IMG/VR virus record: IMGVR_UViG_3300037086_000398
Span: 4,362 to 68,361 of that record
Length of the DNA stretch: 64,000 nucleotides
Reading direction: 5' to 3' (one strand)
Source: a virus
Shown: piece after piece, positions 3-60,699 of the stretch
Layout of the letters: every line of letters begins with the position of its first letter
How positions within the stretch are numbered: the first letter of the stretch is position 1
Translations under genes and position numbers: made by a program
The notes under the pieces: model-generated
The model's input: the letters and a program-made list of their open reading frames with translations, nothing else
Told to the model about the DNA's origin: nothing
Databases searched by the model: none

Positions 3-983
3 GCAGCTAGTTCTGTTCTTCCATTCACTGAACTTGGCTTCATTCATCATGACTGGATTGCTGACTCAAACTTCGAAAGCGTTATCTACACAATGAGGCT
101 CGGTGATTTCGGATTCGGAGCGAGTGCAAAACTCCTCTATGTTCCCTTCACTCACTACAACGATTGGGGACTTTCACTTGGAAATGGTTACTATAGTGAG
201 GGGGTCATCACCTTCAACACTTCATACAACTTTTTCTCCAACTACTATTTCTTTGGTCTTGCAGTCGGTTTGAACTCAAAGCTTGCTTATCGGTATGTTC
301 CTTCAAATATTGCTGAGGATCAGTCTACTATTGCTGGAGTTTTTGACATAGGACTTCTTACTCGATTCAATCTTTTCAAGTTCTATTACTCAACTGACAA
401 AAACTTTTCAATAGGTCTCACCGTGAAGAATCTTGGATTTACATCTCTTCAAGAGAATCTTCCAACAATGACCACTGTTGGTTTGGCCTATTCTCCAATC
501 AGACCATTGACTATTGATGTGGATCTCAACTTTCCATTCAGCTTTGACAATAGGTATCCAGCCATGTCTCCTTATTTTGCCATAGGAGCTAACGTCGAAA
601 TGGCAGAGTTTATTTCATTGCAGACTGGGTTTAGAGTGACGGGTGGAGACCCATTTGTTACTCTGGGAGCTTCTGTCAATATAGGCACACTCTCTATTGT
701 TGCCAACTATAATCTCAACCTAGCAAGCTCTGGGTTCGCCGATCAGTTCTCTGTAGAGGCCAAGTTTCAACTCGGTGATTTTGGAAGAGCAGTTGCTAAA
801 GTAAAAGCCGATGAACTTTATCTTGACGGTGTTGAAGCTTTCGCCAATGGAGATTTACTCAAGGCAATTCAGCTCTGGAATGAATGTCTAAGCACATGCC
901 CCAAGTATGATCCTGCAAGAAGCAATATAAAGGTAGCCCAGGATAGCATCAATCTGCAAGAGCAAATGAATCAGGAGTTTTAG
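3..983 (+). CDS. hypothetical protein, 5'-truncated at window edge; beta-strand-rich with C-terminal TPR-like helices
   Basis: Frame is open from nt 3 with no stop upstream of the listed Met at 93. Alternating hydrophobic/aromatic beta-like pattern. C-terminus 'ELYLDGVEAFANGDLLKAIQLWNECL' is TPR-like. Confidence 0.45.
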   Translation, partial: AASSVLPFTELGFIHHDWIADSNFESVIYTMRLGDFGFGASAKLLYVPFTHYNDWGLSLGNGYYSEGVITFNTSYNFFSNYYFFGLAVGLNSKLAYRYVPSNIAEDQSTIAGVFDIGLLTRFNLFKFYYSTDKNFSIGLTVKNLGFTSLQENLPTMTTVGLAYSPIRPLTIDVDLNFPFSFDNRYPAMSPYFAIGANVEMAEFISLQTGFRVTGGDPFVTLGASVNIGTLSIVANYNLNLASSGFADQFSVEAKFQLGDFGRAVAKVKADELYLDGVEAFANGDLLKAIQLWNECLSTCPKYDPARSNIKVAQDSINLQEQMNQEF

Positions 984-4907: not shown

Positions 4908-5489
4908 ATGGACCGAATAGACTGCTACATGATTTTGGGCATATCATCTGAGGCTTCCGCCGAGGACATCAAGTCTGCCTATAGGCAGAAGGCTATTCAA
5001 TTCCATCCTGATCACAATCCCGATAAAGCAGCCACCGAGATGTTCAAGCGTCTCACAGAAGCCTACAATGCTTTGATGGGGGTGACTTCTGTAAAGAGGG
5101 AAACTTCTCAATCTCGTCCGACTCAGTCAAAATATGAATCATATGATGAAGAGAAGGAACAAGACTACGACTATGATGATGGTTGGGTGAAGGGGAAGAG
5201 GTGGAACCCCAATCAATCTTCTTCCAAAAAGAAACACTACGAGAAATACACTCAGCCCAATGAACCAACTGCCACCCTTGCATGCAAAGCCAGCGTGGGT
5301 TCTTTTCATCGAGATCTTTACAGAAACCGACTTCTGGCTCTGAGAGCCAATCTCAAGGATTTTGATCCAAAGGGAACGATGACTTGGGATGAAGATTGGC
5401 GAACTCTCATATCGTATTTTTCCATCAAGATCGTCACAAAAGAGAGTCTCTGTCGCGCTTTCGACAAAGTAATGAAGAGCTGGGTCTAG
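4908..5489 (+). CDS. J-domain protein (DnaJ-like co-chaperone, J domain only)
   Basis: 'DCYMILGISSEASAEDIKSAYRQKAIQFHPDHNP' contains the canonical HPD J-domain motif. Confidence 0.7.
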   Translation: MDRIDCYMILGISSEASAEDIKSAYRQKAIQFHPDHNPDKAATEMFKRLTEAYNALMGVTSVKRETSQSRPTQSKYESYDEEKEQDYDYDDGWVKGKRWNPNQSSSKKKHYEKYTQPNEPTATLACKASVGSFHRDLYRNRLLALRANLKDFDPKGTMTWDEDWRTLISYFSIKIVTKESLCRAFDKVMKSWV

Positions 5490-7715: not shown

Positions 7716-8081
7716 ATGAGTATGAAAGACATTGTTTTTGGGTCCTATAAGAGGTTGCAAGGATGGATTATTTTCTGTTGTGTCTTGTGTCTTCTTGTAG
7801 GATTTGTTTTTGGGCTTCTGTTTCCAATACCCAAAGTAGCCTTAGTTCCAAAAACAGCTCCAACGATCTTGGTGGAACAAACAGATGTTCCTTTCACTGT
7901 CGATTCGATAGGATTTTTTGATAGTTTCAATGCAGACGGCTGGAACCTTTCTCATTATAGAGACACTGAGAGATGGCGTATAATGGTATTTGTCAACGAC
8001 AATGTGACTATTCAGTATTCAGAGAAGTCATGGAATGCTTTGATAAAGGATTTGAAGGAGACAAAGTGGCCAGAAAGGTAA
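7716..8081 (+). CDS. membrane-anchored hypothetical protein
   Basis: N-terminal transmembrane helix 'WIIFCCVLCLLVGFVFGLLF'. Confidence 0.35.
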   Translation: MSMKDIVFGSYKRLQGWIIFCCVLCLLVGFVFGLLFPIPKVALVPKTAPTILVEQTDVPFTVDSIGFFDSFNADGWNLSHYRDTERWRIMVFVNDNVTIQYSEKSWNALIKDLKETKWPER

Positions 8082-9052
8082 TCTATCGAATAAAAATTGG
8101 ATCCGCCATGTATGGTCTGATGCATGCTGATTCTGACACAGATTACATGGAAGTATTCCTTCCGTCTCCTGAAGAGGTGCTTGGCCTTCATCCAATCGAC
8201 GAGGTAGACAATTCCACCAAGTCTTCTGGTTCTGAGACAAGGAACACCCCTGAAGATGTTGATGACAAGTCTTACTCTTATGCAAAGTATCTCCACATGT
8301 TGCTTGGAAACAACCCCAACATCGTTGAGACTATTTTCGCCAGAGACGACAATGTTCTCACTTCATCTGGAGACATTCAGGAACTTCTGATTCATCCTGA
8401 GAGAATCGTCTCCCAGAGAATCTCCAACAAGTTTTTTGGCTACGCCCTGTCTCAGAAGGCGAAGTTGAACGAGAAGTACAACCGGTATGAGTCGCTCAAA
8501 ACTGGTCTTGCTGAGATGGAAAAGATTTACGAACAGGCTCTTGGAAGACATTACGCCATTGACGAGATAGATTCAATTACTCTCAACAAGTTGCTAAAGT
8601 ACTACAAAAGTGGTCGTCAGCATGTGGAACGGTTCCACAAGGGACTCGACCTTGATATGATTCACGACCATGTGAAAAGTGAATTCGAGAACTATGGATG
8701 GAGAGTGAAGACCGATTCTTTCGAGAAGCTGCACTACGATCTGAAAAATGGATACCACACAATTCGTATCCTTGGCGAAGGAATCATCCTTCTAAAGACT
8801 GGTCACCTTGAGTATCCGATCTCTGGAAAACTTAGGGAAGACATTTTGGCCATTAGGGCTGGTACTGTCGAACTTGACCATCTTTACGAAATGTTCGATT
8901 CCTATAAAGTAGAATACGATAGGGCCGTCGAGGCCTGTACTCTTCGAAAGGATCCGGATTATGATTGGGCAAATAAGCTTCTTGTGGATGCTATGCAGCG
9001 CCACATTATAGATCAGACGGATGATGCTCTCATAAGAGCAATCAAACATTGA
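8030..9052 (+). CDS. predicted nucleotidyltransferase (Pol-beta superfamily, RlaP-like)
   Basis: 'IGSAMYGLMHADSDTDYMEVF' matches the hG[GS]x(9-13)DhD nucleotidyltransferase signature; start is approximate. Confidence 0.5.
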   Translation: MECFDKGFEGDKVARKVIYRIKIGSAMYGLMHADSDTDYMEVFLPSPEEVLGLHPIDEVDNSTKSSGSETRNTPEDVDDKSYSYAKYLHMLLGNNPNIVETIFARDDNVLTSSGDIQELLIHPERIVSQRISNKFFGYALSQKAKLNEKYNRYESLKTGLAEMEKIYEQALGRHYAIDEIDSITLNKLLKYYKSGRQHVERFHKGLDLDMIHDHVKSEFENYGWRVKTDSFEKLHYDLKNGYHTIRILGEGIILLKTGHLEYPISGKLREDILAIRAGTVELDHLYEMFDSYKVEYDRAVEACTLRKDPDYDWANKLLVDAMQRHIIDQTDDALIRAIKH

Positions 9053-9102
9053 AACAACGGCTCCTGAAAGGGAGCCGTTGTTATTTTGGCATATTTCTCT
9101 AT

Positions 9103-9615
9103 ATGAAAGAGCCACGAATAGCAGTATACCCTGGTAGTTTTGACCCTCCTACTCTGGGCCATTTATTGCTCATCTTAAAAGCGGCCAATATTTTCGACAA
9201 AGTCTATGTGATGATTGGTGTCAACCCTCAAAAACCAAATAATTTTCTCAGTCCAGAAATAAGAAAAGATCTTCTGGAAAAATCAATTTCTAGTTGTCTT
9301 CATGGTATACACAATATTGAGGTGGAAATTTATACCGGAGCCACTGTTCTCTTTTGTGTCGAGCACAGTGCCACCAACATTGTGCGTAGTTTTAGATCAG
9401 TGACCGACTTTGAGTATGAAAGATCTGTCGCCAGTGTCAATCTTAAACTTAAACCTGATATTCAAACGGTTTTTTTTCATCTTCCAGATGAAGCCAGTTG
9501 TATCAGTTCTTCAACAGTACGAGAGCTTTATAACCTAGGCCTATTGTACGATTTACGCAAGTTTGTCCCTGACGAAGTAGCTGAGCTGTTGATCAATAAA
9601 CACCATTCTAGTTAG
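9103..9615 (+). CDS. coaD: phosphopantetheine adenylyltransferase-like cytidylyltransferase (CoaD/PPAT family)
   Basis: 'IAVYPGSFDPPTLGHL' carries the (T/H)xGH nucleotidyltransferase motif; '...RSVTDFEYE...SSSTVRE' matches conserved PPAT motifs. Confidence 0.6.
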   Translation: MKEPRIAVYPGSFDPPTLGHLLLILKAANIFDKVYVMIGVNPQKPNNFLSPEIRKDLLEKSISSCLHGIHNIEVEIYTGATVLFCVEHSATNIVRSFRSVTDFEYERSVASVNLKLKPDIQTVFFHLPDEASCISSSTVRELYNLGLLYDLRKFVPDEVAELLINKHHSS

Positions 9616-9641
9616 GCATATTTTATACAGGAGGATCACGA

Positions 9642-9815
9642 ATGGACAATGACAGAATTGAGTGTCCGAACTGTCTCAGGGGACAGATGATGGAAGTCAA
9701 AGACAAAGATGACAAGTGGACCGAATACCAGTGCAGGAAATGTAGATCTCTGAAAGTTCTGATGAAACCTGATCCTGTCTGCATCACTTTTACCCGACAA
9801 ACACAAGGAGATTGA
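9642..9815 (+). CDS. small zinc-ribbon protein (57 aa)
   Basis: 'ECPNCLRG...CRKCRS'; RBS aggagg lies 7 nt upstream. Found by hand. Confidence 0.4.
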   Translation: MDNDRIECPNCLRGQMMEVKDKDDKWTEYQCRKCRSLKVLMKPDPVCITFTRQTQGD

Positions 9816-9816
9816 C

Positions 9817-10116
9817 ATGGCTCTAGATCTCGACAGCTATAAGCAAGGTCTTGAAACTGGCCTTAAGCAGGCACCCAAAACTATCGTAAGGACAACGAAG
9901 AAGAGTTGGTCGATTCCAACAGTTCTTTTCATCGTTTTTCTCATCCTAAAGCTCACCCACACCGTTGATTGGAGCTGGTGGATAATCACTCTTCCACTGT
10001 GGATAGGACCAGCTTTTGTAATCGGTGTGATGGCGGCCATTGGAGGAGTCATTCTCGCAATCCTAGCAGTTGTGGGAGTTATTGCCCTCATTGCGTGGAT
10101 TTTTGGTGGACGATGA
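9817..10116 (+). CDS. membrane protein
   Basis: Three predicted transmembrane helices. Confidence 0.4.
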   Translation: MALDLDSYKQGLETGLKQAPKTIVRTTKKSWSIPTVLFIVFLILKLTHTVDWSWWIITLPLWIGPAFVIGVMAAIGGVILAILAVVGVIALIAWIFGGR

Positions 10117-10117
10117 A

Positions 10118-10546
10118 ATGACAGATGATTTAGAAAAAAAGTTGGCCACGCATTTCAATTTCTTCAACTTCCTGAATCCAGAGTTCGGATTTGAGTGTGC
10201 AGACGGATGGTTTCAAATCATTTGGGATCTATGCGAAGATCTCGACAAAATGGAAAGAGAAAGGTGGGCTGCAATCCCTGCAGATGAGAAGGCCAAGATT
10301 TTTCTTGAAGGAGGAAATCCTGGCCTTCAAGTTATTCAAGTCAAAGAAAAGTTTGGAACTCTCAGATTCTATGTTGAAAACTCAGACGACAAGATGTACA
10401 AGAGGATAAGTGAAGCTGAAAAAGCTTCTGCTGTCACGTGTGAGGTTTGTGGAAAACCTGGAACATTGACTGGAAAATCATGGGTCAGAACAACTTGTCC
10501 AGAGCATACGAAGAAAGATAAAGATGTTGATACAAGTATTTCATGA
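10118..10546 (+). CDS. hypothetical protein with C-terminal Cys cluster
   Basis: 'TCEVCGKPG...TCPEH'. Confidence 0.35.
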   Translation: MTDDLEKKLATHFNFFNFLNPEFGFECADGWFQIIWDLCEDLDKMERERWAAIPADEKAKIFLEGGNPGLQVIQVKEKFGTLRFYVENSDDKMYKRISEAEKASAVTCEVCGKPGTLTGKSWVRTTCPEHTKKDKDVDTSIS

Positions 10547-10955
10547 TGTTGTAATGGATCATTCTCTCATATTCGAAATCAGACAGAAAGTAATTGATCC
10601 ACCAAAGCCTGAGGAAAAGAAAGAAGAACCAACGACACAGCCAGTGTCTCTAAAAAAGACACTTTGGAACAAGAAAGAGCGGCTTGAACAACAAGAAAAA
10701 GAAAGAGAAGAATCAGCTCGCAAGGCTTTAGAGCTTTTAGAGAACAAGCCCGCATCAACTCCACAATCTCCGAGAGAATATGGAGTTGAAATTCATTATT
10801 GGACCGACAAAGCTGGAACCAATTCTTCGAGTATATACAACCACCTAGACCGAACAAGGCCTACGGCCTTAGCGCATATTGACCATCTTACAAGGTTGAT
10901 CAACAAATACAATGCTGCAGAGAAAAGAAAACCAAAGCCAAAAGGAAAAAAGTAA
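10524..10955 (+). CDS. hypothetical protein, paralog A of a tandem pair
   Basis: N-terminus 'MLIQVFHDVVMDHSLIFEIRQK' is shared with the next gene. Confidence 0.4.
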   Translation: MLIQVFHDVVMDHSLIFEIRQKVIDPPKPEEKKEEPTTQPVSLKKTLWNKKERLEQQEKEREESARKALELLENKPASTPQSPREYGVEIHYWTDKAGTNSSSIYNHLDRTRPTALAHIDHLTRLINKYNAAEKRKPKPKGKK

Positions 10956-11248
10956 TGTTGGTACAAGTTTTTCACGACTATTGGATTGAACACAATCTCG
11001 TGATTGATGTTCATCTCAAAATCCTTGGAGAAGACAAACAAGCTCCCCTAAATGAGCACAGTGGTCAATCACCACACAGGTATGCTATTGAAGTCACTTA
11101 TTTTTCATCCCCAAATAAAAGTGTTAGAACACTAGTTCGCAGTTTTCCAGAACCAGAAGATTATCAGACTGTTGTAAAAGAACTAAATAAGATAGCTAGA
11201 AAGATAAACAGTCTAAAGAGAAAAGAAATCCAATCGGTTGAAAAATAA
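10955..11248 (+). CDS. hypothetical protein, paralog B of a tandem pair
   Basis: 'MLVQVFHDYWIEHNLVIDVHLK'. Confidence 0.4.
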   Translation: MLVQVFHDYWIEHNLVIDVHLKILGEDKQAPLNEHSGQSPHRYAIEVTYFSSPNKSVRTLVRSFPEPEDYQTVVKELNKIARKINSLKRKEIQSVEK

Positions 11249-11253
11249 CGCAT

Positions 11254-12360
11254 ATGACAAAAAGGGATTACTACGAAGTTTTAGGCATTGATAAAACAGC
11301 TTCTAAAGACGATATCAAAAAGGCCTATAGAAAATTAGCCCTCCAGTTCCATCCGGATAGAAACCAAGACAAACAAGCCGAAGAACAATTCAAAGAAGCC
11401 ACAGAGGCCTATGATATTCTCATGGATTCTGGCAAGCGGGCTCAATATGATCAATTTGGTTTTGGTGGATTGAATCAGAATGGATTCCGTCCAAATCCAC
11501 AAAACTATCGTGGATTTGAAGACATTTTTGGTGGCATGCCGTTTAATGATTTTTTCAATCGAGCATGGGGTGGAGAAAACCCATTTAACAGTTTCTTTGG
11601 TGGTGGAATCCCAAAACAGAATAGAGTTCTTGTTGGAGCTGATGCTCAATACCGTCTCAATTTCGAATTAAAAGACGTTCTTCACGAAAAGAAAATAGAG
11701 TTCGATTTTCCAAGAAAAGAGATTTGTGACACGTGTCATGGTAATGGAATAGCTTCAGACGGCAAAGAAACAATGTGTCCAGCGTGTGGTGGTAGAGGAC
11801 GTATCAGAACCAAACAACAAGGATTCTTTGTCATGGAAATGGGATGCCAGAGATGTGGTGGAACAGGTATGACCATTGACAAGCCTTGCCATACATGCAA
11901 GGGCGAGAAGTTAGTATTAAAAACAAAAACCGTCAAGATCAGGATTCCTTCAGGAATTAGTGATGGGGCAACTCTGAAGCTCAACGGTGAGGGACATCAG
12001 AGTCCAAATGGTGGCCCTTCTGGTGATTTATATATAACCGTAAAAGTAAAATCTCATCCTCACTTTAAGCGTCAGGGAAACTCTCTTCATTGCATTGCTG
12101 AGGTTCCATTTGTTCAAGCAATTTTAGGAGATACAATTCCATTGGTTTGGATAGATGATACAACATTGCTTATTGTTGTTCCTTCTAACACTAAAAATGG
12201 AGAAGTCATAAAAATACCCGGAAAGGGCATTGCTGGAGACACTCTCTTTATCAATGTCATAATCAAAATGCCTAAGACCCTGACAGACAGTCAGAAGCAG
12301 GCCATTAAATCACTGAATCTTGAAAAAGATGTCAGTATGCAGCTCAAGGAGATAAGCTGA
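11254..12360 (+). CDS. dnaJ: DnaJ (Hsp40) chaperone, full-length type I
   Basis: J domain with HPD ('LALQFHPDRN'), a Gly/Phe-rich linker, four CxxCxGxG zinc-finger repeats ('CDTCHGNG', 'CPACGGRG', 'CQRCGGTG', 'CHTCKGEK'), and a C-terminal domain. Confidence 0.85.
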   Translation: MTKRDYYEVLGIDKTASKDDIKKAYRKLALQFHPDRNQDKQAEEQFKEATEAYDILMDSGKRAQYDQFGFGGLNQNGFRPNPQNYRGFEDIFGGMPFNDFFNRAWGGENPFNSFFGGGIPKQNRVLVGADAQYRLNFELKDVLHEKKIEFDFPRKEICDTCHGNGIASDGKETMCPACGGRGRIRTKQQGFFVMEMGCQRCGGTGMTIDKPCHTCKGEKLVLKTKTVKIRIPSGISDGATLKLNGEGHQSPNGGPSGDLYITVKVKSHPHFKRQGNSLHCIAEVPFVQAILGDTIPLVWIDDTTLLIVVPSNTKNGEVIKIPGKGIAGDTLFINVIIKMPKTLTDSQKQAIKSLNLEKDVSMQLKEIS

Positions 12361-12833
12361 TGTGGTTACTATTGATTCTTATTTTTCTTTTCTTTGCGGC
12401 AGCCACTCTTTTGAAAGTTCTCAAGAATTTAAATTCGGTGGTTTTCTTTCTTGCTTTTATTCTTAGTTTGGGAACATTTTTCACTATAGGAACCTATAAT
12501 GTTAAGACGACAAGCAAGCTTCCATCCAAAGTTGATGAGATTCCAATCTATTTCATGAAAGATGTAAAAACTGATCGAGATCCATTTGTTATAGGAATTA
12601 AAGACATTTCAACAAATAGTTTTTATTTCTATCTCAAGGATGGTAATCTTCTCAGAAAAATGGACTTGAAGGTAGAAAATTTGAAGGTCGTCGATAAGGA
12701 TGTTTCGCCCATGTTAACCGCCATTTCAAAAACTGATGTTACGGGGTGGTTAAGTCTAGGATTGAGTGGATCGACCTCATATCAGATACGGCTTCCAGTT
12801 TCACTTGTTACTAAAGTGTCCCCTCAACAATAG
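12360..12833 (+). CDS. membrane-anchored hypothetical protein
   Basis: Two N-terminal transmembrane helices; ATGA-coupled to dnaJ. Confidence 0.4.
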   Translation: MWLLLILIFLFFAAATLLKVLKNLNSVVFFLAFILSLGTFFTIGTYNVKTTSKLPSKVDEIPIYFMKDVKTDRDPFVIGIKDISTNSFYFYLKDGNLLRKMDLKVENLKVVDKDVSPMLTAISKTDVTGWLSLGLSGSTSYQIRLPVSLVTKVSPQQ

Positions 12834-12959
12834 AATTAGGAAGCCTTCTCTCCTTGTTGCCTTTTTCCCATCTATCATTTACAAGGAGGGCAAGAACATC
12901 ATTCATTGTCTTATTTTCCCTCATTGCAACTATTTTCAGCTTTTTCCAAGTTTCCAAAT

Positions 12960-13267
12960 CAATTTGAACAGGTTTCCTAATTGCCATGTTTTCTCCTCTA
13001 CATAGAATTATGCCAAGTTTTGGATACTAGTATATTTGTTTTACAATTATTCAACTTTTTGAAATTGGATCATTATGATTCACATTATTAGACAAAATGA
13101 TACAGTGATCATTTTACTGTTCCAATAAGAAACTAGTTTCATGAAATAGCTTCAAAAGTGTATCAAAAAGAAACAAAGCAAAGAAGTGTCAAAAGGATGA
13201 CCAAATCAATTTTTTTCTAGAAAAGCAAAGTTATTATTGTAAACCAAAAATAAAGGAGGGCTATACA
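12960..13267 (+). promoter_or_regulatory. long AT-rich intergenic region, probable promoter region upstream of hsp20
   Basis: A ~300-nt non-coding stretch with TTGAAA/TTTACA-like hexamers and an RBS 'aaaggaggg' before the ATG at 13268. No promoter could be mapped precisely. Confidence 0.3.
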
Positions 13268-13666
13268 ATGTATCCTATGGAAAGACTTATGAGAGAGTTT
13301 CTAGGCGAAGGCCTTAATACAGCGCGCAAGTGGGCCTATCAATGTGGGGCCAAACCACTCCACACACATTGGGATGAGAAAGACGGTAGTTACATCGTAA
13401 GTTCAGAAGTACCAGGTCTTGAAAAGGACAGGGTGACGGTGACCTACAAGGACGATTACCTCACCGTCAAAGCTGACTATAGTACTGAGGATGAAGAGAA
13501 GTGTGAGTGTGGTTGCATGAGAACTGGGGAGTACTCCTTTAACGGCTATTTCCCTGGAATCGATGCTTCAAAAATCGACGCTCAGTTGAAAAACGGAATT
13601 CTCACAATCACTCTACCAAAGGGCGCTGAAGTTGCTGGTACCACCATCGACATAAAAAGCGAATAA
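13268..13666 (+). CDS. small heat shock protein (Hsp20/alpha-crystallin family)
   Basis: C-terminal alpha-crystallin-domain motif 'AQLKNGILTITLPK'; length 132 aa. Confidence 0.7.
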   Translation: MYPMERLMREFLGEGLNTARKWAYQCGAKPLHTHWDEKDGSYIVSSEVPGLEKDRVTVTYKDDYLTVKADYSTEDEEKCECGCMRTGEYSFNGYFPGIDASKIDAQLKNGILTITLPKGAEVAGTTIDIKSE

Positions 13667-13707
13667 CTCCACAAATTGGAGTTGGTCATTTCTTCCCTAA
13701 GAGAGAA

Positions 13708-13737
13708 GGAGACCTGGAAACAGGTCTCCTTTTTTTG
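13708..13737 (+). terminator. rho-independent terminator
   Basis: 'ggagacctg-gaaa-caggtctcc' followed by TTTTTTT. Confidence 0.75.
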
Positions 13738-13751
13738 TAAGATAAACTTAT

Positions 13752-14102
13752 ATGAATGATTTCATTATTGATATGAGCATGCATCTGACTGGAAAACTCT
13801 TTGTAGCTACTGAGAGTGGAAAAACCTCTATCCTTTGGGTATTGAAAGACGTCTATGATTTTCAACACAGCGCTGATCAGGATGCCCTTTTAGTTCATCT
13901 CTATTGTGATGAAAACATTATGACTGATAAACTTCACTACCTACAACTCAACAAAGTCATCACGTCTGATAGTTGGGACATTGTTGGATACGGTGACTTT
14001 GGATTTCAAGAATCAAACTTAGACCAAAAACGGCTGCTTATATCAACTATCTTCAATTCACTTGAAATAAGAGAAAATACAAAATGGAAGTTGGCGACGT
14101 AA
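13752..14102 (+). CDS. hypothetical protein
   Basis: 116-aa ORF. Confidence 0.35.
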   Translation: MNDFIIDMSMHLTGKLFVATESGKTSILWVLKDVYDFQHSADQDALLVHLYCDENIMTDKLHYLQLNKVITSDSWDIVGYGDFGFQESNLDQKRLLISTIFNSLEIRENTKWKLAT

Positions 14103-14332
14103 TTCTCTACATTGGAGCATGGGTTGTTGTTGAAGTGAGGGAGGGGGACGCTCGTGGTCTCTCTTTTGATGCGACTTGGAGCAAACCAGACCTCAACACC
14201 CTTCATATTCATGAGAGATGGATCGATCACGGTGCTGTTATGGCAGGAAAAAAACAGGGAGAAGAATATAGACACCAAGCAGTGTCCAGTATTTTTTTAG
14301 CTAAAAAGGTAACATTGGCTTGGTCGCAATAG
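14084..14332 (+). CDS. hypothetical protein
   Basis: 82-aa ORF. Confidence 0.3.
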   Translation: MEVGDVILYIGAWVVVEVREGDARGLSFDATWSKPDLNTLHIHERWIDHGAVMAGKKQGEEYRHQAVSSIFLAKKVTLAWSQ

Positions 14333-14847
14333 GGTCCTTACAGCATACTTCCTTAGAGAGGTATATGATGGGAGTGTCAATCTTTTTCATAGGGTTTGTT
14401 GGTCTAATTTCTAGTGGAACACTCATTTGTATGATCTACAGCCAGACAAAGGGTGAGAAAGAATTCAAATTCAAGCATTGGTTCGCGCTTTCAGTTTTTG
14501 TTGCATTTGTTGCTCTGATGATTGGAGTTAGCACTATGGAAACCGACATTAGCAAAATGTCGATCACACTCAGTGATAAAAAACTTTCAATTTCAGCAAA
14601 AGAAGCTGCGGACATTCAAGCAATGTGGAGAATTGGTTCTGAGATTCCTGGATACGATTTGATGGTCAGCGATGGAAAAGGGGGCCTTTCTCTTACCAAC
14701 TATCAGATTGACAAATTTTCTATTGAAGGCAATGATCTCTATATTCGTGAGATTGTCAAGAGAAGTCCGAGTGGATTCTTCAATTTCCGAAACACTAGGA
14801 CGGTACATTACCTCGTTCTTCCTGAAAGGGTTTTACCAAATAAATGA
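14320..14847 (+). CDS. membrane protein
   Basis: Two transmembrane helices near the N-terminus. Confidence 0.35.
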   Translation: MVAIGSLQHTSLERYMMGVSIFFIGFVGLISSGTLICMIYSQTKGEKEFKFKHWFALSVFVAFVALMIGVSTMETDISKMSITLSDKKLSISAKEAADIQAMWRIGSEIPGYDLMVSDGKGGLSLTNYQIDKFSIEGNDLYIREIVKRSPSGFFNFRNTRTVHYLVLPERVLPNK

Positions 14848-15458
14848 AGTTTCGAACAGGTTTTGTCAGCAATTCATCTGCCGCCTCATTCATAGTCAAA
14901 TTTACTACTTCTCTCAAGAAGAGTGAAGTTGCAAAAGCCATCAAAGTCTGTCACCAATGGATAGCGGACAATTGGGACAATGGTGCCCCAACAACTTTTT
15001 CATTTCCAAACAAGCAAGGCAAACAAATAATCTTTAAAAATCCACCACCTCTTCTTCGGAGAAAGCTCAAGAAGGTGGGAGATCACTATGAATGGTATGC
15101 TGACACTTCTATGTTTAATGATTGGCGCGACGTCTCAGAATGGCCATTCATCAGAATGATTTCTGAAGATAAATATCCTGGAATCAAATTGATTGAAATT
15201 GAACAAACTGAGGATGGCAACGATGGTGATATTCCTCGTATTGCAACATATGACCCTAGAACCTTTGAAACCGAATGGTATGAAGAGGAGCATTTCAAAA
15301 AGACCGAACGAGCAGAAAAGAAGAAGGAAGCTGAAAAAAGTCAAAAAAAGGTAGAAATTGAGTATCTCATCTATCTCTCTAATCTTGGTGTTATAGAGCT
15401 TACCGATGATCAAATTGTCCTCGTTGCCAAGCACCATCTCAAAAACGAAAAAGACTAA
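14844..15458 (+). CDS. hypothetical protein
   Basis: 204-aa ORF, ATGA-coupled, with a Lys/Glu-rich C-terminus. Confidence 0.4.
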   Translation: MKFRTGFVSNSSAASFIVKFTTSLKKSEVAKAIKVCHQWIADNWDNGAPTTFSFPNKQGKQIIFKNPPPLLRRKLKKVGDHYEWYADTSMFNDWRDVSEWPFIRMISEDKYPGIKLIEIEQTEDGNDGDIPRIATYDPRTFETEWYEEEHFKKTERAEKKKEAEKSQKKVEIEYLIYLSNLGVIELTDDQIVLVAKHHLKNEKD

Positions 15459-17103: not shown

Positions 17104-19110
17104 ATGGAATTTCAATTCTTAGGTCTTACCGTCGGGACTGTTAAGAAAGAGCAAAATCTAAACCAAAAAAAAGCTGAAAAGATTCAGGATTACCTGAACC
17201 GTTTCAAAATCACTTCTAGAGATCTAGACAGTTCTGAAGCAAGAAAATACGCAGCAAATATGACTTCTCCTTGGCAGGGGTATTCCTGGGTTCAGGACAT
17301 CACTGATCTCACGAATAGCAGACCTGTCAGATATAGAGATTATAGAGAAATGTGTAGAGTTCCTGAACTCAATCAGGGACTCAATATTTACGCCGATAAT
17401 GCAACCCAATCAGACATTAACAACAATGTTCTTCAAATTGAATCAGACAACAACAAAGTAGTAGAAATACTCGAGCGACTTTTCTTTGAGAGACTCGACA
17501 TTAATGCCCAATTGTGGAATTGGACAAGAAATATGTGCAAACTGGGAGACGAATTTCTCGAAGTCGTACCAGATAATTTAGCAAAACCACGACATATTGT
17601 TGCAATTGAGAGGATTCGAAGACCAGAAAGATTGGAGAGAGTTGAGAAGGACGGCAATCTAGAAAAATTCACCTACACTTTTGATGAGGATGAATCACAT
17701 AAGAAGCAGGGTGATTTCCAACCATGGCAAGTGGTTCATCTCCTTATAGATGACGATGATTTGCATCCATATGGCCGCTCTATTTTTGAGGCTGGAAGAA
17801 AGACTTTCAAAAGATTGACATTAATGGAAGATGCGATGTTGATCTATCGCATTTCTAGAGCTCCAGAAAGAAGAGTGTTTTATATTGATGTTGGAAACCT
17901 TTCCACTAAGGATGCTAATCATTATGTTGAGCAGCTAAAGAGAACTTTCAAGAAGAAGGTCTATGTCAATCCAACTACTGGTGATGTTGATGAAAAAGCA
18001 AACCCATTAGCAGTTGATGAAGACTTTTTTGTTCCAGTGAGAGAAGGATCTACAGGAACAAGAATTGAAACTCTTCCAGCTGGTATGAATCTTGGAGAAA
18101 TTGATGACGTCAAATACTTCAAAGATCAAATCCTTCGAACAATGGGAATTCCATCTTCTTATTTGGGAACTGGTGAAGGTGGTGCAGGATGGGATCCAAA
18201 GAGTTATTTGTCGCATCAAGAAATTCAATTCTCAAGGACAGTTGAAAGAATTCAACGTCACTTGATAAAGGGTCTTGAGAAAGTAGCCATAGTAGAATTG
18301 GTGTTCAGTGGAATTGATGAATCTGAATTCAAGAATTTCAAAATTAAATTGACTCCTCCATCAAATGTAGATCAATTGATGGAAATTGAAGTTCGCAATC
18401 AACAATTTGCACTCATTCAATCAATCAAGGGAATCAGCCCTGATCTTCCTTTCCTCTCTGATGAGTGGATTTATAAGGAAGTGTTGGGATTCAATGATAA
18501 ACAAATCAACCAAATCAAATTGCAAATTCAAATGCAATTGCAGCTCTCTGCACAACTTAAGCAAATGTTTGGTGGGGAAGGGGCTGAAGGTGGTGGAGCT
18601 ATGGGTGGTGGAGGCGGAGCAGCAGGTGGAGTTCCTGGAGTTGCAGGTGGGCCAGAAATGGGTGGAGCTATGGGAGCAGAAGCGGGAGCTGGAGGGGCGG
18701 CTGGGGCTGAAGCAGGTGGAGGAGCAATGGGAGCTGGAGCGGCGGGAGCAGCACCAGGGGGAGCACCTCCGGCGGGTGGAGCACCCCCAGCACCAGGTGG
18801 TGGAGGTCTACAAGTCGCTAGCAGAGATATGGTGAGTTTTGATGGCGGAAAATGGTTGATGGAAAATAAGGGTGACGCAAAAAAACTATTGCAGTATATT
18901 TCATTATACGAAAAAGTAAATAAAGATAAATCTAATAAAAAGCACAGAGTTTATGAGGATAATTCGCTGACCCGAATGACCATTAAGGGTGAATTCAGGG
19001 GTCTATTAAAGGCAACCTCTATAACTAATGGCTCTCCCAAAACATTAAGCGAAGACACTTCTGAAGAAAATCAAAACACATCAAACAGTAATGCTGTACA
19101 GCAGCAGTAA
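17104..19110 (+). CDS. portal protein (T4 gp20-like by synteny) with Gly/Ala-rich low-complexity insert
   Basis: 668 aa, positioned immediately upstream of the protease/scaffold/gp23-like capsid block. Contains a ~90-aa GGAxGA low-complexity segment ('GGEGAEGGGAMGGGGGAAGG...'). Confidence 0.7.
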   Translation: MEFQFLGLTVGTVKKEQNLNQKKAEKIQDYLNRFKITSRDLDSSEARKYAANMTSPWQGYSWVQDITDLTNSRPVRYRDYREMCRVPELNQGLNIYADNATQSDINNNVLQIESDNNKVVEILERLFFERLDINAQLWNWTRNMCKLGDEFLEVVPDNLAKPRHIVAIERIRRPERLERVEKDGNLEKFTYTFDEDESHKKQGDFQPWQVVHLLIDDDDLHPYGRSIFEAGRKTFKRLTLMEDAMLIYRISRAPERRVFYIDVGNLSTKDANHYVEQLKRTFKKKVYVNPTTGDVDEKANPLAVDEDFFVPVREGSTGTRIETLPAGMNLGEIDDVKYFKDQILRTMGIPSSYLGTGEGGAGWDPKSYLSHQEIQFSRTVERIQRHLIKGLEKVAIVELVFSGIDESEFKNFKIKLTPPSNVDQLMEIEVRNQQFALIQSIKGISPDLPFLSDEWIYKEVLGFNDKQINQIKLQIQMQLQLSAQLKQMFGGEGAEGGGAMGGGGGAAGGVPGVAGGPEMGGAMGAEAGAGGAAGAEAGGGAMGAGAAGAAPGGAPPAGGAPPAPGGGGLQVASRDMVSFDGGKWLMENKGDAKKLLQYISLYEKVNKDKSNKKHRVYEDNSLTRMTIKGEFRGLLKATSITNGSPKTLSEDTSEENQNTSNSNAVQQQ

Positions 19111-20456: not shown

Positions 20457-21364
20457 TGGATAACATGCTACAAGAGTTTAACGCTCTAAGCTACCAGTTA
20501 GAAGAACTCAACGAAGACGGACAACCAAAGAAGTTTCGTCTTAAGGGCGTTTTTCAGGCGGCCGACGTGCCCAACGGCAACAAAAGGATGTACCCGAGAG
20601 CAGTTCTCGAAAGCGCAATTACTGGCGTAAAGCCAATGGTAACAGAAAGAAGGATGCTTGGAGAGTTGGATCACCCAGCTGATGCCAAGATCCATTTAGA
20701 TAAAGTGTCACACATTGTGACAAAATTGGAAATGACAGCAGATGGAAAAGTATATGGTGAAGCTGAAGTTCTCCCAACCGCACCAGGAAGAATCCTTGAA
20801 TCCTTGCTGAAAAGCCAGGTGAAGCTTGGAATTTCCTCACGCGGATTTGGAAGCACAAAGGCAAACGATGCTGGACTTGATGAAGTTCAGAGCGATTACA
20901 AGATCGTGACATTCGACATTGTATCTGATCCATCAACACCTGGTGCATTTCCTTCAGCAGTGTATGAGGACAAGAAAGTAGAACAGAAAGAAGAAGAGAA
21001 GGAAGAAGAGCAAGAGCCCGAATATGTCGTGACTCTAGAGTCAGTTGTTGAAGAGATCCTCGATACTGGTGCTGAAGTCGTAAAAGAAAACAAAGAATTT
21101 GTTTGCACTGATGGAGAAGGAAACCGCTTCTACCTAGTAGAGGGCGAGAAAGATTCATACGGACATTTGAATTTTCACGTGTCCCATGATTTCCATCTCC
21201 TAATGAAGAGCGAGGATCGCAGAGAAGAGTTGGGAATCAATGACACCAACCTATCGCTTATAGAAGACGTATATGGCGATACTATCGCATCTAAGATTAG
21301 AAAATCACTTGCAAATCTTGGGTACGATGCACAGACATTGAACCGCAAGAAGGAGGACAAGTAA
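20456..21364 (+). CDS. prohead protease (T4 gp21-like / HK97-type prohead serine protease fold)
   Basis: 'FRLKGVF...NKRMYPRAVLE...GELDHP...VSHIVTKLEMTADGKVYGEAEVLPT...GISSRGFGS' resembles the prohead-protease signature pattern; lies between portal and scaffold. Confidence 0.65.
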   Translation: MDNMLQEFNALSYQLEELNEDGQPKKFRLKGVFQAADVPNGNKRMYPRAVLESAITGVKPMVTERRMLGELDHPADAKIHLDKVSHIVTKLEMTADGKVYGEAEVLPTAPGRILESLLKSQVKLGISSRGFGSTKANDAGLDEVQSDYKIVTFDIVSDPSTPGAFPSAVYEDKKVEQKEEEKEEEQEPEYVVTLESVVEEILDTGAEVVKENKEFVCTDGEGNRFYLVEGEKDSYGHLNFHVSHDFHLLMKSEDRREELGINDTNLSLIEDVYGDTIASKIRKSLANLGYDAQTLNRKKEDK

Positions 21365-37903: not shown

Positions 37904-37958
37904 CAAAGGCATTTGCTTGGCTCTCATATATGAGAGCCAAGAGATTTATCCTAGGAGG

Positions 37959-47165: not shown

Positions 47166-47690
47166 TCAGTCATCTATATTCTCCAAAAGAGCTTTGGCAT
47201 AAGTAGCTTCAGTGAGGTAGACAGGATAAAAAGATCCCACGAACGATGGATAGTAGTCTCCAATATTTTCAGTTCCGAATTCGACCACTACCTTTGAAAT
47301 GAGTGGGTTGATCATGAGCAAAACATCAAAGTTTTCGTGTTCGTCGTCGGCCTTCTTTTCACAAACCACTTCAACCGGATCGAACACATTTTTCACTTCA
47401 CCATCAATGAAAATGTCTCCCATAGAGGATCGATAACCATCGTTTGGATCTTCGAAGACGGAGTAGATGATTCCATCGAGAATAAATCTGATGACGTTGG
47501 CTCTGTCAGTTCCAATGCCAAAAGCAGCTGGGACCTGGGCATAGTCGGTCTCAACACCAGTAAGAATATGGGTTCCAAGTAAATCATCAATTTTAACAGT
47601 CTTAATGTTGTCCATAACATATAAATTATGCATATTTGATTCAAATGAAACATATCTTCTATCACCGCAGTGACAATGATGGTAAGACAT
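47166..47690 (-). CDS. hypothetical protein (minus strand)
   Basis: 174-aa ORF. Confidence 0.4.
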   Translation of the reverse strand: MSYHHCHCGDRRYVSFESNMHNLYVMDNIKTVKIDDLLGTHILTGVETDYAQVPAAFGIGTDRANVIRFILDGIIYSVFEDPNDGYRSSMGDIFIDGEVKNVFDPVEVVCEKKADDEHENFDVLLMINPLISKVVVEFGTENIGDYYPSFVGSFYPVYLTEATYAKALLENIDD

Positions 47691-48544
47691 CTGGAGCCAT
47701 TATTAAATACGCCAATCCAGACAGCGTTCTGCACCCATATGAATACAACGACCCATTCCCATATGATCTCATCAAAGATGAAGATGAAATCATTTTTACA
47801 GATGCTGTTGCTCCATATCCTGAGCTTCTGAAAATCATCGACAAATATCATACCACTATTATTGATCATCACATCTCACTCATCAACTTTTTGAAAGATC
47901 ACCAACTCGATCCAGATGGTTATCGTAGAAATGATTATGTGGCAGCTTGTGAGCTTTGTTGGGAGTATTATTTCAAGACGAAGTTGCTCCCACAATCAAT
48001 CAAACTCATTTCAACTTATGATTGCTGGGACAATCGCAATAAAGAAAATTGGGACAACGTTGTTCTTCCTTTCCAATATGGATTGAGAAGATTCGGTATG
48101 GATCCTCTGAGCAATTGGCCATTTTGGCAGAATCTGCTCGACAAGATTGTAAATAATCCATCTGCAGATTTGGATTTTGTAGAAGAAAACATTTCTGCTG
48201 GTAAATCGATTTTGATCTATCAAACAAATGTCGCTGCAGAGATCATGCACACAAACTTTTTCGACGCTCAATTTGAAGGACTTCGCGCCCTTTGTTGCAA
48301 CACAAACATCAAGAACAATCAATTTTTTGCATCAAAGTGGGATGAGAGCAAATATGAATTGATGGTGGGATTTGATATCAGATCTGATCAGGCAATAAGA
48401 GTAAGTCTTTATACCACTAGAAATGATGTTGATGTCAGTAGGGTGGCTGGAAGATTTGGTGGCGGGGGTCACAAACAAGCTTCTGGATTTTTGGCAAAAA
48501 CATATCGCATCTTTAATGGTCAATTATTTTTTGTACATTTCTAG
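47636..48544 (+). CDS. DHH/DHHA1 family phosphoesterase (NrnA/RecJ-like)
   Basis: Motifs 'YHRSDNDGKTSGAII', 'IIDHH' and C-terminal 'GGGHKQASGF' (the DHHA1 GGGH motif). Confidence 0.65.
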   Translation: MIQMKHIFYHRSDNDGKTSGAIIKYANPDSVLHPYEYNDPFPYDLIKDEDEIIFTDAVAPYPELLKIIDKYHTTIIDHHISLINFLKDHQLDPDGYRRNDYVAACELCWEYYFKTKLLPQSIKLISTYDCWDNRNKENWDNVVLPFQYGLRRFGMDPLSNWPFWQNLLDKIVNNPSADLDFVEENISAGKSILIYQTNVAAEIMHTNFFDAQFEGLRALCCNTNIKNNQFFASKWDESKYELMVGFDIRSDQAIRVSLYTTRNDVDVSRVAGRFGGGGHKQASGFLAKTYRIFNGQLFFVHF

Positions 48545-48636
48545 AATCTTGCATATATTCTTACATACAACAACATAGAAAATACCAATACACATCCGTT
48601 CGCGAATAACGTGAAATGGAAAAAGGAGTAAATAAA

Positions 48637-49398: not shown

Positions 49399-49406
49399 GC
49401 AATCAG

Positions 49407-53187: not shown

Positions 53188-53193
53188 ATATAA

Positions 53194-54357: not shown

Positions 54358-54359
54358 AA

Positions 54360-59144: not shown

Positions 59145-60107
59145 ATGAAACTTGAAGACATAGGATTCTATACACTCTCTGATGCTCGAGCCGCTTCTTC
59201 AAGTGAATTCTCACCTCTTTCGAGGTGTGAGTTGATCCTTACCGACAGGTGCAACTTCAAGTGCCCATATTGCAGGGGTGTGAAGGAAGAATACCACGGT
59301 GACATGCCGAAGGAGAGAGCTTTTGAGATTGTGGAGTCTTGGGTTTCTCATGGCTTGAAGAACATCCGTTTCTCTGGTGGAGAGCCGACTTATTACAAGT
59401 ATTTGATGGATCTCGTGTTGATCGCTCGAAGAAGCTGTGAGCACATTGCCATCTCCACCAACGGAACTGCTCCGATCGAAATGTATGAATCTCTCATAAA
59501 ATATGGAGTCAATGACTTCTCTATCTCACTTGATGCCTGTTGTTCTTCAACAGCGGAGACTATGAGCGGAGGAGTTGCAGACTTCGATGAGATCTGCAAT
59601 ACGATCATGGAACTCAGCCACAAGACATATGTCACAGTTGGAGTAGTTCTCACACCGGACAACATCAAGGAGACTGGTGAGATTATCAAGCTTGCCGACT
59701 TTTTGGGAGGGAGTGATGTTCGAATCATTCCGGCAGCACAGTGGAAAGTAGGACTCGAACTGTTTGAGATTGATAAGAAGATTCTCGATAGGTATCCGAT
59801 CCTCGAGTATCGATACAACAATCTCAAAAATGGAATCTCTGTCAGAGGTCTCTCTGAGAGTGACAACCACGGATGTCCGCTCGTGCTGGACGATATGGCC
59901 GTGATCGGAGACGACCACTATCCATGTGTCATCTATCTCAGAGAACAGGGAAAGCCGATTGGCAAGTTCTCTGATATCTCTCAGGTCAGAGCCGAAAGGG
60001 CCAATTGGTTTGAATCCCACGATGTCTATGAGGACCCGATTTGTAGAAGCTCTTGTCTTGACGTATGCCGTGACTATGGGAACAAATGGAGGGAGTTACA
60101 CGGATAA
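59145..60107 (+). CDS. radical SAM enzyme with SPASM/twitch-like C-terminal Cys cluster
   Basis: 'ILTDRCNFKCPYCRG' is CxxxCxxC; 'RFSGGEPT' is the GGE motif; C-terminal 'CPLVLDDMAVIGDDHYPC...CRSSCLDVC' fits Cx10Gx5C...Cx3Cx3C. Lies directly upstream of the second SCR array. Confidence 0.6.
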   Translation: MKLEDIGFYTLSDARAASSSEFSPLSRCELILTDRCNFKCPYCRGVKEEYHGDMPKERAFEIVESWVSHGLKNIRFSGGEPTYYKYLMDLVLIARRSCEHIAISTNGTAPIEMYESLIKYGVNDFSISLDACCSSTAETMSGGVADFDEICNTIMELSHKTYVTVGVVLTPDNIKETGEIIKLADFLGGSDVRIIPAAQWKVGLELFEIDKKILDRYPILEYRYNNLKNGISVRGLSESDNHGCPLVLDDMAVIGDDHYPCVIYLREQGKPIGKFSDISQVRAERANWFESHDVYEDPICRSSCLDVCRDYGNKWRELHG

Positions 60108-60144: not shown

Positions 60145-60699
60145 ATGCTGAAAGAGCTCGTTTTCAAAGCATATTCCTTCGCAGAACTCAAACACAAGGA
60201 TCAGACACGCAAATACTCTGGCATCCCCTATTTCACCCACCCCAAGGCCGTTGCACGTATTCTCGAAGCGCTTGTCAAGGACCCTGAAATCGTCGCCTGT
60301 GGCCTACTTCACGATGTCGTGGAGGACTCGGGAACTCTCATTCAAGAAATCAAAGACAACTTTGGAGACCGAGTGGCTTCCATTGTTGATGAACTCACCA
60401 ACAAAAAGGAAGAGCGTGGAATCATGAAGAAGAGAGACTATCTCTTCCAAAAGATTCGTAAAATTTCTTCCGATGCTCTTACTGTTAAACTAGCCGATCG
60501 CCTTCACAACATCGAATTTCTTGAAAGAGACCTTGGTGGAAAAGAAGCTAAACAGTTCATCTGCTACTATTACGAAGAAACTCGCTATGTGTTTGGAACT
60601 CTCATCGACGACAGAGAATTGAATGAGGTCCAGAAGGTTCTGTTGAAAAACATTGACGCTGTTCTCGACTTCCTCAAACTAATGCACAATCTAGACTAG
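60145..60699 (+). CDS. HD-domain (p)ppGpp hydrolase, SpoT/Mesh1-like small alarmone hydrolase
   Basis: 'YFTHPKAVARIL...IVACGLLHDVVED' and 'KLADRLHN' match RelA/SpoT HD-domain motifs; 184 aa with no synthetase domain. Confidence 0.65.
   Translation: MLKELVFKAYSFAELKHKDQTRKYSGIPYFTHPKAVARILEALVKDPEIVACGLLHDVVEDSGTLIQEIKDNFGDRVASIVDELTNKKEERGIMKKRDYLFQKIRKISSDALTVKLADRLHNIEFLERDLGGKEAKQFICYYYEETRYVFGTLIDDRELNEVQKVLLKNIDAVLDFLKLMHNLD

Follow-up and report, generated by a model that had tools for sequence, protein, structure and literature searches.

The 64,000-nucleotide stretch of IMG/VR virus record IMGVR_UViG_3300037086_000398 analysed here (positions 4,362 to 68,361 of the record, hereafter the window) carries four genes which the initial annotation had grouped into one toolkit for nucleotide signalling and cofactor metabolism. 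These are an RlaP-family Pol-beta nucleotidyltransferase (positions 8066..9052), the phosphopantetheine adenylyltransferase (PPAT) CoaD (9103..9615), a stand-alone DHH/DHHA1 phosphoesterase (47645..48544) and a small alarmone hydrolase (SAH) of the MESH1/SpoT type with an HD domain (60145..60699). Our analysis suggests that they are probably functional accessory genes, each independent of the other three, in a very large tailed phage of spirochaetes, and not the parts of one operon or pathway. All four open reading frames (ORFs) are present on the plus strand where they had been located, and their profile matches lie far beyond chance.

The arrangement of the genes does not bear out a physical or regulatory toolkit. 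The capsid module separates RlaP and CoaD, both at 8–9.6 kb, from DHH at 47.6 kb and the HD gene at 60.1 kb. The four are not regarded as one toolkit because they are spread over distances of 38–51 kb with a structural module in between, because a hairpin separates RlaP from CoaD, and because no CoaD was found at 80 other viral RlaP loci. Each gene is nevertheless full length, retains its catalytic residues and is under strong purifying selection. Compared with the orthologues (73–84% identical) in a syntenic relative located on a 732 kb contig, the proportion of nonsynonymous differences (pN) is 0.10–0.17 against 0.66–0.73 for synonymous differences (pS) in the four genes, and the corresponding rate ratios (dN/dS) are ~0.04 for RlaP, 0.10 for CoaD, 0.10 for DHH and 0.07 for the HD gene, values to be taken as approximate, the synonymous sites being close to saturation. 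These are observations on the genes themselves, as are the families and neighbourhoods described below, whereas the substrate and physiological role of each protein are what we infer.

The longest ORF of the nucleotidyltransferase extends from 7973 to 9052 (plus strand, 359 amino acids (aa)). The likely start is the GTG at 8066, which was chosen by gene callers on an identical Logan contig and gives a protein of 328 aa; the exact 359-aa ORF is not on record, since the called start is 8066. The start at 8030 proposed earlier is therefore slightly off, although it falls inside the gene region. The protein scores 57.1 bits (E = 2.8e-15) with the Pfam family PF10127 (RlaP), for which the cut-off is 23, and matches phrog_388 ‘nucleotidyltransferase’ over its full length (E = 4.8e-55). 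Its homologues form 3,976 clusters at 50% identity. The Pol-beta signature together with the third aspartate (G12-S13...D24-x-D26...D66) is invariant in 50 sequences including the query, and three strictly conserved catalytic aspartates are known to be required in RlaP (PMC12776372). The AlphaFold2 (AF2) model, with a predicted local distance difference test score (pLDDT) of 94.1, shows a nucleotidyltransferase domain at the N-terminus followed by a helical domain, with a terminal helix in addition, a layout resembling the one published for RlaP.

The window protein shares the GS...DxD...D signature and, judged by its predicted model, probably also the two-domain architecture with terminal helix with the characterised Pseudomonas enzymes PfRlaP and PaRlaP and with NrdC.11 of phage T4, itself a member of the RlaP family, which is widespread in large phages; its score is above the Pfam gathering threshold. 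It is too divergent from solved structures for a sequence-based match, and searches of the PDB with sequence and profile for an RlaP structure returned spurious matches alone (streptokinase and ribosomal protein L22). Foldseek searches with the model placed weak matches to minimal nucleotidyltransferases of the KNTase/ANT type on top (E ~3e-3). We considered an identity as a cGAS/DncV-like CD-NTase and rejected it, as PADLOC gave no match and no CD-NTase was present among the Foldseek matches.

RlaP adds one or two nucleoside monophosphates (NMPs) to the 3′-OH of RNA in a Mn2+-dependent reaction and restores the aminoacylation of over-trimmed tRNA (PMC12776372). Its preferred substrates are mimics of nicked tRNA, and it rescues the aminoacylation of tRNA that is short of one nucleotide (PMC12776372). 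Since the published biochemistry of RlaP is addition of NMPs to RNA 3′-OH ends, the family assignment makes the window protein a predicted RNA 3′-end enzyme of the tRNA repair kind and not an enzyme of nucleotide signalling, as had been supposed. In the phage, it would restore tRNAs that have been cut and trimmed by host ribotoxins, so that these can be religated or recharged. Characterised RlaPs sit within RtcB operons, whereas the window RlaP has no adjoining RNA ligase or RtcB and is followed by coaD.

The second protein for which a role at tRNA ends can be considered is the HD protein, a SAH of 184 aa with a single HD_4 domain (PF13328, 73.6 bits against a cut-off of 27.2). It covers only residues 1–123, the N-terminal hydrolase part, of the 687-residue model TIGR00691 (spoT_relA) and has no synthetase domain. 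Its top match in the PDB is human MESH1 (3nr1, E = 5.2e-20, residues 7–168), which agrees with the SpoT/Mesh1-type hydrolase named in the initial annotation. Across 24 homologues there is no variation at H32, H56-D57, E60, D118 or N122 and almost none at D61, and the catalytic residues align with the MESH1 motifs inHP, llHDtvED and klaDklyN. By these matches the protein is a MESH1-type SAH. It has the same layout as MESH1, PaSpo, ATfaRel and bacterial SAHs, namely a single HD_4 domain of ~180 aa without synthetase and with the full set of H/HD/ED/D/N motifs, and like PaSpo it is encoded by a phage.

Toxins of the toxSAS group (FaRel2, PhRel2 and CapRel) act against phages by pyrophosphorylation of tRNA at its 3′-CCA end. 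MESH1 and ATfaRel bring back the aminoacylation of tRNA pyrophosphorylated by FaRel2, and PaSpo, a SAH of the Salmonella phage SSU5, strips the pyrophosphate from tRNA and neutralises the toxins. CapRel has been reported in Spirochaetes. The window SAH would likewise remove a 3′-pyrophosphate. Likely substrates are, on the one hand, (p)ppGpp or (p)ppApp and, on the other, tRNA CCA ends pyrophosphorylated by immune toxins of the toxSAS/CapRel type, the latter probably mattering more to the phage; NADPH may be considered too. The SAH has no adjoining toxSAS gene and is therefore not an antitoxin module; a radical SAM gene lies beside it. Functionally it may be grouped with RlaP as an enzyme of tRNA 3′-end healing, despite the 51 kb that lie between the two genes.

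The neighbourhoods of the four families in other viruses were collected from IMG/VR, with flanks of up to 10 kb, for 80 RlaP, 80 DHH, 80 SAH and 61 CoaD loci. The scan for RlaP used an alignment of 13 sequences, and proteins encoded within 6 kb of RlaP were clustered, after which the cluster representatives were scanned with Pfam. A CCA-adding enzyme was found within 6 kb at 25 of the 80 RlaP loci, with a median distance of 714 bp; the other recurrent neighbours are an Rnl-type RNA ligase that carries a tRNA-binding OB domain (8 loci), a kinase resembling polynucleotide kinase (PNK; 8), RtcB (6–8), Thg1 (5) and an HD_4 SAH (5–7). At least one classical repair partner lies within 6 kb in 44/80 loci. 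One of the RtcB genes beside a viral RlaP (L061, 5674–7905) is split by an intein (Intein_splicing, E = 1.8e-19).

A SAH gene is present within 10 kb of RlaP at 7/80 loci, and in six of these, from diverse lineages, it lies within ~2 kb on the same strand. Contiguous cassettes have the order SAH-CCA-RlaP (L024), SAH-Rnl-RlaP (L079) and SAH-RlaP (L067). When hits were counted per Mb and normalised to the DNA available in bins of 0–2.5, 2.5–5, 5–7.5 and 7.5–10 kb, the density of repair genes around RlaP was 125, 46, 43 and 22, and that of SAH genes around RlaP 17, 0, 3.3 and 3.6. Repair genes around SAH gave 24, 10, 12.5 and 5 per Mb, and those around DHH 25, 15, 7 and 11. Around CoaD the values were 34, 27, 9.5 and 30.5, a series without distance decay, which therefore indicates co-residence in gene-rich huge genomes and not linkage; a linkage of CoaD to tRNA-repair genes, seen at first in 18/61 loci, was dropped on this ground. 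A crude Poisson estimate for seven SAH genes in 1.42 Mb, with the SAH density of INPHARED as baseline (175 records in 2.3 Gb), gives P ~3.5e-11, or ~8e-5 with a tenfold baseline, both of them optimistic values as the lineages are not independent.

Because of these SAH-repair cassettes in other viruses, and because SAHs are reported to act on pyrophosphorylated tRNA, we favour a role of the window SAH in healing tRNA 3′ ends against toxSAS toxins, which is at least as strongly supported as the blunting of the stringent response that had been suggested for it. The part of that earlier suggestion which holds is the hydrolase family; the cassettes and the activity on tRNA point at least equally to repair. 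More tentatively, and as an idea which we would not yet call probable, phage SAHs may in part be components of tRNA 3′-end repair cassettes (SAH-CCA-adding enzyme-RlaP, SAH-RNA ligase-RlaP and SAH-RtcB), where the main task of SAH would be to strip the 3′-pyrophosphate set on tRNA by toxSAS/CapRel immune toxins before the end is rebuilt by the CCA-adding enzyme or RlaP, and the unlinked RlaP and SAH of the window would cooperate in the same way. The recurrent SAH-RlaP-CCA/ligase cassette of other viruses is the only mildly novel outcome of this study; no description of it was found in the literature searched, nor any paper tying alarmone hydrolases to CCA-adding enzymes in phages.

The third protein, the DHH/DHHA1 phosphoesterase, is 299 aa in length (47645..48544, plus strand, within an ORF from 47636). 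It matches phrog_4771 ‘DHH phosphoesterase’ (E = 5.5e-34), while the Pfam matches to DHH (21.0 bits against a gathering score of 28.1) and DHHA1 (21.0 against 25.9) are both under the gathering score. Since the NrnA equivalog model NF053633 scores only 23.7 bits against a cut-off of 350, the protein is not taken as an orthologue of NrnA. In 47 homologues no change is seen at H10, D13-x-D15, D56, D77-H78-H79, D129 or G276-G-G-H279, so the earlier call of a DHH/DHHA1 phosphoesterase stands, and the protein belongs to a coherent family of ~290-aa proteins. Its AF2 model (pLDDT 96.8) has the two-domain DHH and DHHA1 fold, for which Foldseek retrieved TM1595, Borrelia DhhP, PggH, NrnA and a PAP phosphatase with probability 1.0 and E-values of 1e-10 to 1e-12; the TM-scores reach 0.4–0.5 alone, owing to the inter-domain hinge.

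With NrnA, NrnB (COG2404), TM1595, Borrelia DhhP and Vibrio PggH, the window protein shares the motifs, the two-domain fold and a length of ~300 aa. It differs from these enzymes in forming a distinct subfamily, which is abundant among uncultured viruses, with at least 417 relatives in IMG/VR, and rare in isolated phages (8 records). It is best read, on motifs and predicted fold, as a phosphodiesterase of the nanoRNase, dinucleotide or pAp type. As a two-metal enzyme of the NrnA/NrnB/DhhP/PggH type, it would degrade short oligoribonucleotides, dinucleotides such as pApA and pGpG, or pAp, and could thereby serve nucleotide recycling and the clearing of RNA fragments.

Inspection by eye of the 80 DHH loci gave DnaB-like, ligase-like, Rnl-type and ThyX-like proteins as the most frequent neighbours. 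In one compact cluster (L131/L133, ~10–15 kb), the DHH gene is accompanied by an Rnl RNA ligase at 599 bp, a CCA-adding enzyme at 2.1 kb, a CoaD-like HIGH-motif transferase (31% identical) at 3.1 kb and RtcB at 4.3 kb. At another locus (L040), RlaP is followed by DHH with Thg1 directly after it. In the window, the DHH gene is directly followed by a DUF7873 protein (48616–49398, E = 1.1e-68), which is kept at this position in the relative; an antisense ORF at 48541–49485 is longer than the DUF7873 ORF and probably spurious.

The reading in which all these enzymes serve one purpose is the most serious competitor of the one proposed here. The SAH would lower host (p)ppGpp and so block the stringent response, the DHH enzyme would destroy the cyclic di- or oligonucleotides with which CBASS, Thoeris or type III CRISPR systems signal, and the nucleotidyltransferase and PPAT would manipulate nucleotides and cofactors. 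The SAH does possess all catalytic residues of a (p)ppGpp hydrolase and resembles MESH1 and the hydrolase domains of Rel. The DHH/DHHA1 family includes c-di-AMP, pApA and pGpG phosphodiesterases and a nuclease degrading cyclic oligoadenylate (cited in Iyer et al. 2021, PMC7824862), GdpP, PggH and DhhP are among the structural neighbours of the window protein, and exactly this role was proposed for HD-alarmone and DHH enzymes of jumbo phages (Iyer et al. 2021, PMC7824862). However, the nucleotidyltransferase is an RlaP and thus belongs with enzymes of RNA ends, none of the four proteins has a match in PADLOC, and SAH genes cluster with tRNA-repair genes and not with other anti-signalling genes. 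The neighbours of DHH genes, being replication, nucleotide-metabolism and RNA-ligase genes, show no defence-related pattern either. On balance, we consider a common anti-signalling function unlikely, though it deserves to be kept in view.

The gene directly upstream of the SAH gene encodes a radical SAM enzyme (59145..60107, plus strand, 320 aa from the ATG; the ORF begins at the TTG at 59112). It matches PF04055 with 85.4 bits, and its top NCBIfam model is MoaA (79 bits, far under the cut-off). The enzyme is MoaA/SkfB-like and has a C-terminal CxxxCxxxC cluster. An assignment as viperin was dropped, given a match to the generic core alone, better matches to MoaA and SkfB, and scores under the cut-offs throughout. 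A gap of 37 nt lies between the two genes, which share one strand, and they occur as a pair in the 732 kb relative as well, where ClpB-like and cation-efflux genes come after SAH. Such an arrangement could speak for a two-step pathway producing or processing a modified (guanine) nucleotide, in which the HD protein would not be a hydrolase of alarmones or tRNA, and the resemblance of the radical SAM protein to the GTP-using MoaA, and weakly to viperins, would suit it. The pair also recurs loosely on an unrelated contig (L037), where a radical SAM homologue of 50% identity lies ~2 kb from a SAH and near RlaP. Yet the other homologues of 50% identity, in uncultured megaphages of 735 kb and 485 kb (L019 and L020), have no HD gene within 6 kb, a radical SAM gene of the window type is near 0/80 viral SAH genes, and a SAH relative of 51% identity has no radical SAM partner. 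As the MoaA and viperin matches are moreover restricted to the generic radical SAM core and far under cut-offs, a joint nucleotide pathway appears improbable, and the assignment as a MESH1-type SAH is retained.

CoaD, the fourth protein, is 170 aa in length and encoded on the plus strand. Its ORF spans 9049–9615 and would be lengthened by a TTG at 9049; the conserved start is the ATG at 9103, and this form is on record for the identical protein and for the relative of 73% identity. The earlier call as PPAT is confirmed by the equivalog model TIGR01510 (coaD, 142.5 bits against a cut-off of 103.3) and by the PDB, where 34/34 matches are phosphopantetheine adenylyltransferases (best E = 1.5e-28); NadD/NMNAT models reach 16–31 bits against cut-offs of 112–403. 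Counterparts of H18, K42, R88, R91, D95, Y98, E99, N106 and S128–130 (E. coli numbering) are all present, and the T/HxGH and ISSS motifs are kept, at an overall identity of 37% to E. coli PPAT. The sequence used for this comparison is what we take to be E. coli CoaD, and the result agrees with the PDB alignments. Among 18 sequences, Y9, G11, F13-D14-P15, G19-H20, K44, R95, R98, D102, E106 and S135–136 of the window protein are invariant. The predicted enzyme would convert 4′-phosphopantetheine and ATP to dephospho-CoA, so that the supply of CoA might be boosted or de-regulated during infection.

The closest non-phage homologues, at 42–45% identity, are housekeeping coaD genes near lpxA/fabZ-type, sigma-factor and dapB genes, while other phage CoaDs are 29–41% identical to that of the window. 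The latter is regarded as an independent lineage because of this low identity to both phage and cellular proteins. It resembles bacterial CoaD (E. coli 1b6t and T. maritima 1vlh) in passing the equivalog score, in its key residues and in its length and fold family. Viral CoaD is concentrated on genomes and contigs of 170–735 kb, and the window gene, like the coaD of Caulobacter Bertelyvirus, Brevundimonas phages, Lak phages and the 735 kb LR756501, resides in a very large phage genome; coaD has also been listed among the auxiliary metabolic genes of viromes (PMC11097641). From its matches and relatives, CoaD is best read as a captured cellular PPAT, an auxiliary metabolic gene typical of huge phages. 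The neighbours of genuine phage CoaD genes vary: in Caulobacter BL47 an RNA ligase lies 2 kb off on the opposite strand, in Brevundimonas Kikimora Pth is close, and in Myxococcus Mx1 a second cytidylyltransferase and NAMPT are found. Two further matches were discarded as bacterial DNA, one assigned to Microcystis phage MaAM05 (L003, MW495066.1; rplA, rplK, nusG, secE and a tRNA in the region) and one to Acinetobacter phage MD-2021a (L004, CAKLQF020000022.1), where coaD lies just outside a prophage integrase.

A terminator-like hairpin is located at 9053..9087 (plus strand), after the RlaP stop codon and ahead of the ATG of CoaD, and consists of a 13-bp GC-rich stem and a GAAA loop followed by AUUUU. 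Its folding energy is -24.5 kcal/mol (z -5.8), and 0/200 shuffled sequences fold equally well. It was not listed by a consensus terminator scanner, the run of T being 4 alone; an equivalent hairpin with a longer T run is retained in the 73% relative (L002). On account of this conserved structure, RlaP and CoaD are not coupled in translation, and they probably belong, at least in part, to separate transcription units.

The hairpin also bears on a possible functional pair of RlaP and CoaD, in which CoaD might for example supply dephospho-CoA for the capping of RNA, or adenylylate RNA or phosphate ends, with RlaP acting on the same RNAs. In the window as in the 732 kb relative, the two genes are direct neighbours on one strand, RlaP is found within 5 kb at 3/61 viral CoaD loci, and CoaD-like genes are scattered near RNA genes, as with the ligase of BL47, the Pth of Kikimora and the DHH-Rnl-CCA-RtcB cluster described above. 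Outside the window and its close relative, though, the adjacency was not seen, CoaD being within 10 kb of RlaP at 0/80 other viral RlaP loci, and this together with the flat repair-gene density around CoaD rules it out as a general pair. The score of CoaD as a true equivalog and the conservation of all residues of its phosphopantetheine and ATP sites are further arguments against a function on RNA. We therefore judge such a pair very improbable and retain CoaD and RlaP as separate functions.

Several database ‘phage’ records with coaD are bacterial DNA. A view of the four genes as degenerate leftovers, or as bacterial DNA wrongly joined into a phage contig, is nevertheless effectively refuted, since they are embedded in more than 60 kb of dense same-strand phage-type genes including the capsid module, their order is shared by two independent assemblies and a diverged relative, and their catalytic residues are intact with dN/dS of 0.04–0.10.

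Several points weigh against the interpretation of four functional accessory genes with the roles proposed above, besides the saturation of synonymous sites already mentioned. An RNA ligase, RtcB, a CCA-adding enzyme, PNK and Thg1 were not found in the 64 kb window, searched with Pfam and with tblastn using more than 60 viral representatives, or in the sampled regions of the relatives; it is for this reason that RlaP is described as having no visible repair partner in the window, the source genome being at least 114 kb, so that a ligase may lie outside the window. The linkage of SAH to repair genes is confined to a minority of lineages (~9% of the loci for RlaP and 12.5% of those for SAH), with small counts; in this phage the neighbour of the SAH gene is a radical SAM gene and not a repair gene. 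The DHH protein is 12–17% identical to characterised enzymes and has no dominant neighbour; its substrate is a guess. No other gene of the CoA pathway or for an acyl carrier protein was found in the window (no CoaE nearby), leaving the benefit of CoaD unexplained.

The source element is a tailed phage, as evident from a portal (17104–19110), a prohead protease (20456–21364) and a major head protein (22251–23834), which form a prohead and head module at 17.1–23.8 kb and match PHROG head families with E-values of 2e-82, 1.6e-50 and 9.6e-74, respectively. The genes of the window are densely packed and mostly on the plus strand, the GC content is ~41%, and no tRNA gene is present in the 64 kb. The phage encodes an outer-membrane-type protein of the family UPF0164 (PF03687), which is truncated in the window (93–983) and also present at L001 (676–1881) and L009 (583–1827). 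As all 72 cellular relatives found for this protein (identity up to 52%) are in Spirochaetota/Treponema genomes, the host of the phage is very likely a spirochaete.

No match was obtained when 5 kb of the window was compared by megablast with the phages of INPHARED, and scans of IMG/VR with the single proteins CoaD and RlaP revealed no close relatives. The syntenic relative is located at 508–593 kb of a single metagenomic contig of 732,019 bp (JGI 3300082197, Ga0673036_0000002; loci L002, L008 and L018), and is 73–85% identical to the window with synteny over at least 85 kb. If viral throughout, this contig would compete in size with the largest genomes known from phages (735 kb); alternatively, it could be a chromosome carrying a prophage. 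A more distant member of the same clade (L009/L010, contigs of 302 kb, 26.5 kb and longer), with UPF0164 and MORN repeats, carries within 7 kb (8001–15068) a SAH (51% identical, without a radical SAM partner), a DNA ligase, a DHH/DHHA1 protein (33% identical) and a PTH2 peptidyl-tRNA hydrolase.

Other genes of the window may be mentioned briefly. Phage-encoded chaperones, kept in the relative, comprise a J-domain protein (4908–5489), a DnaJ (11254–12360) that is complete with J, CXXCXGXG and C-terminal domains, and an HSP20 (13268–13666). An HNH-endonuclease-like ORF (23978–24928) is located directly 3′ of the major head protein gene. An 845-aa protein (30722–33259), unusual in a phage, matches the shoulder of the major vault protein (E = 4.7e-25), a Vault_3 repeat and SPFH/Band_7. 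A second radical SAM protein (34059–35372, minus strand) is followed by an XpaC/Halogen_Hydrol protein (36189–36788, E = 1.3e-30), a protein of 664 aa that combines OmpA and NMT1-like parts (37635–39629) and a VWA protein (39638–40447). A block at 52406–57173, also kept in the 732 kb relative, contains a weak VWA protein, a CYTH domain (53365–53835, E = 7.8e-15; PDB 3typ and 2fbl at ~1e-17), a PP2C phosphatase (54360–55187) and a Ser/Thr kinase (55497–57173). The CYTH protein would be a nucleotide/triphosphate enzyme beyond those listed in the initial annotation. A resemblance of the VWA-PP2C-kinase block to the TerY-P-type defence triad was seen; PADLOC gave no match, and the assignment was dropped.

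RlaP (with RNA ligases), HD-alarmone phosphodiesterases and DHH phosphodiesterases have been described as adaptations of jumbo phages, where such enzymes were proposed to counter host nucleotide signals (Iyer et al. 2021, PMC7824862). With these three families and coaD already catalogued in jumbo phages or viromes, their presence in the window adds little by itself. The apparent nucleotidyltransferase-PPAT pair is an accident of one lineage, and its correction averts the inference of a false operon. The phage is of interest in itself, as a huge virus very likely infecting Spirochaetota, whose syntenic relative occupies a 732 kb contig, and as a member of an under-sampled group. The SAH cassettes, finally, provide a testable genomic argument that phage SAHs may act on tRNA ends and thereby defeat immunity of the toxSAS/CapRel type.

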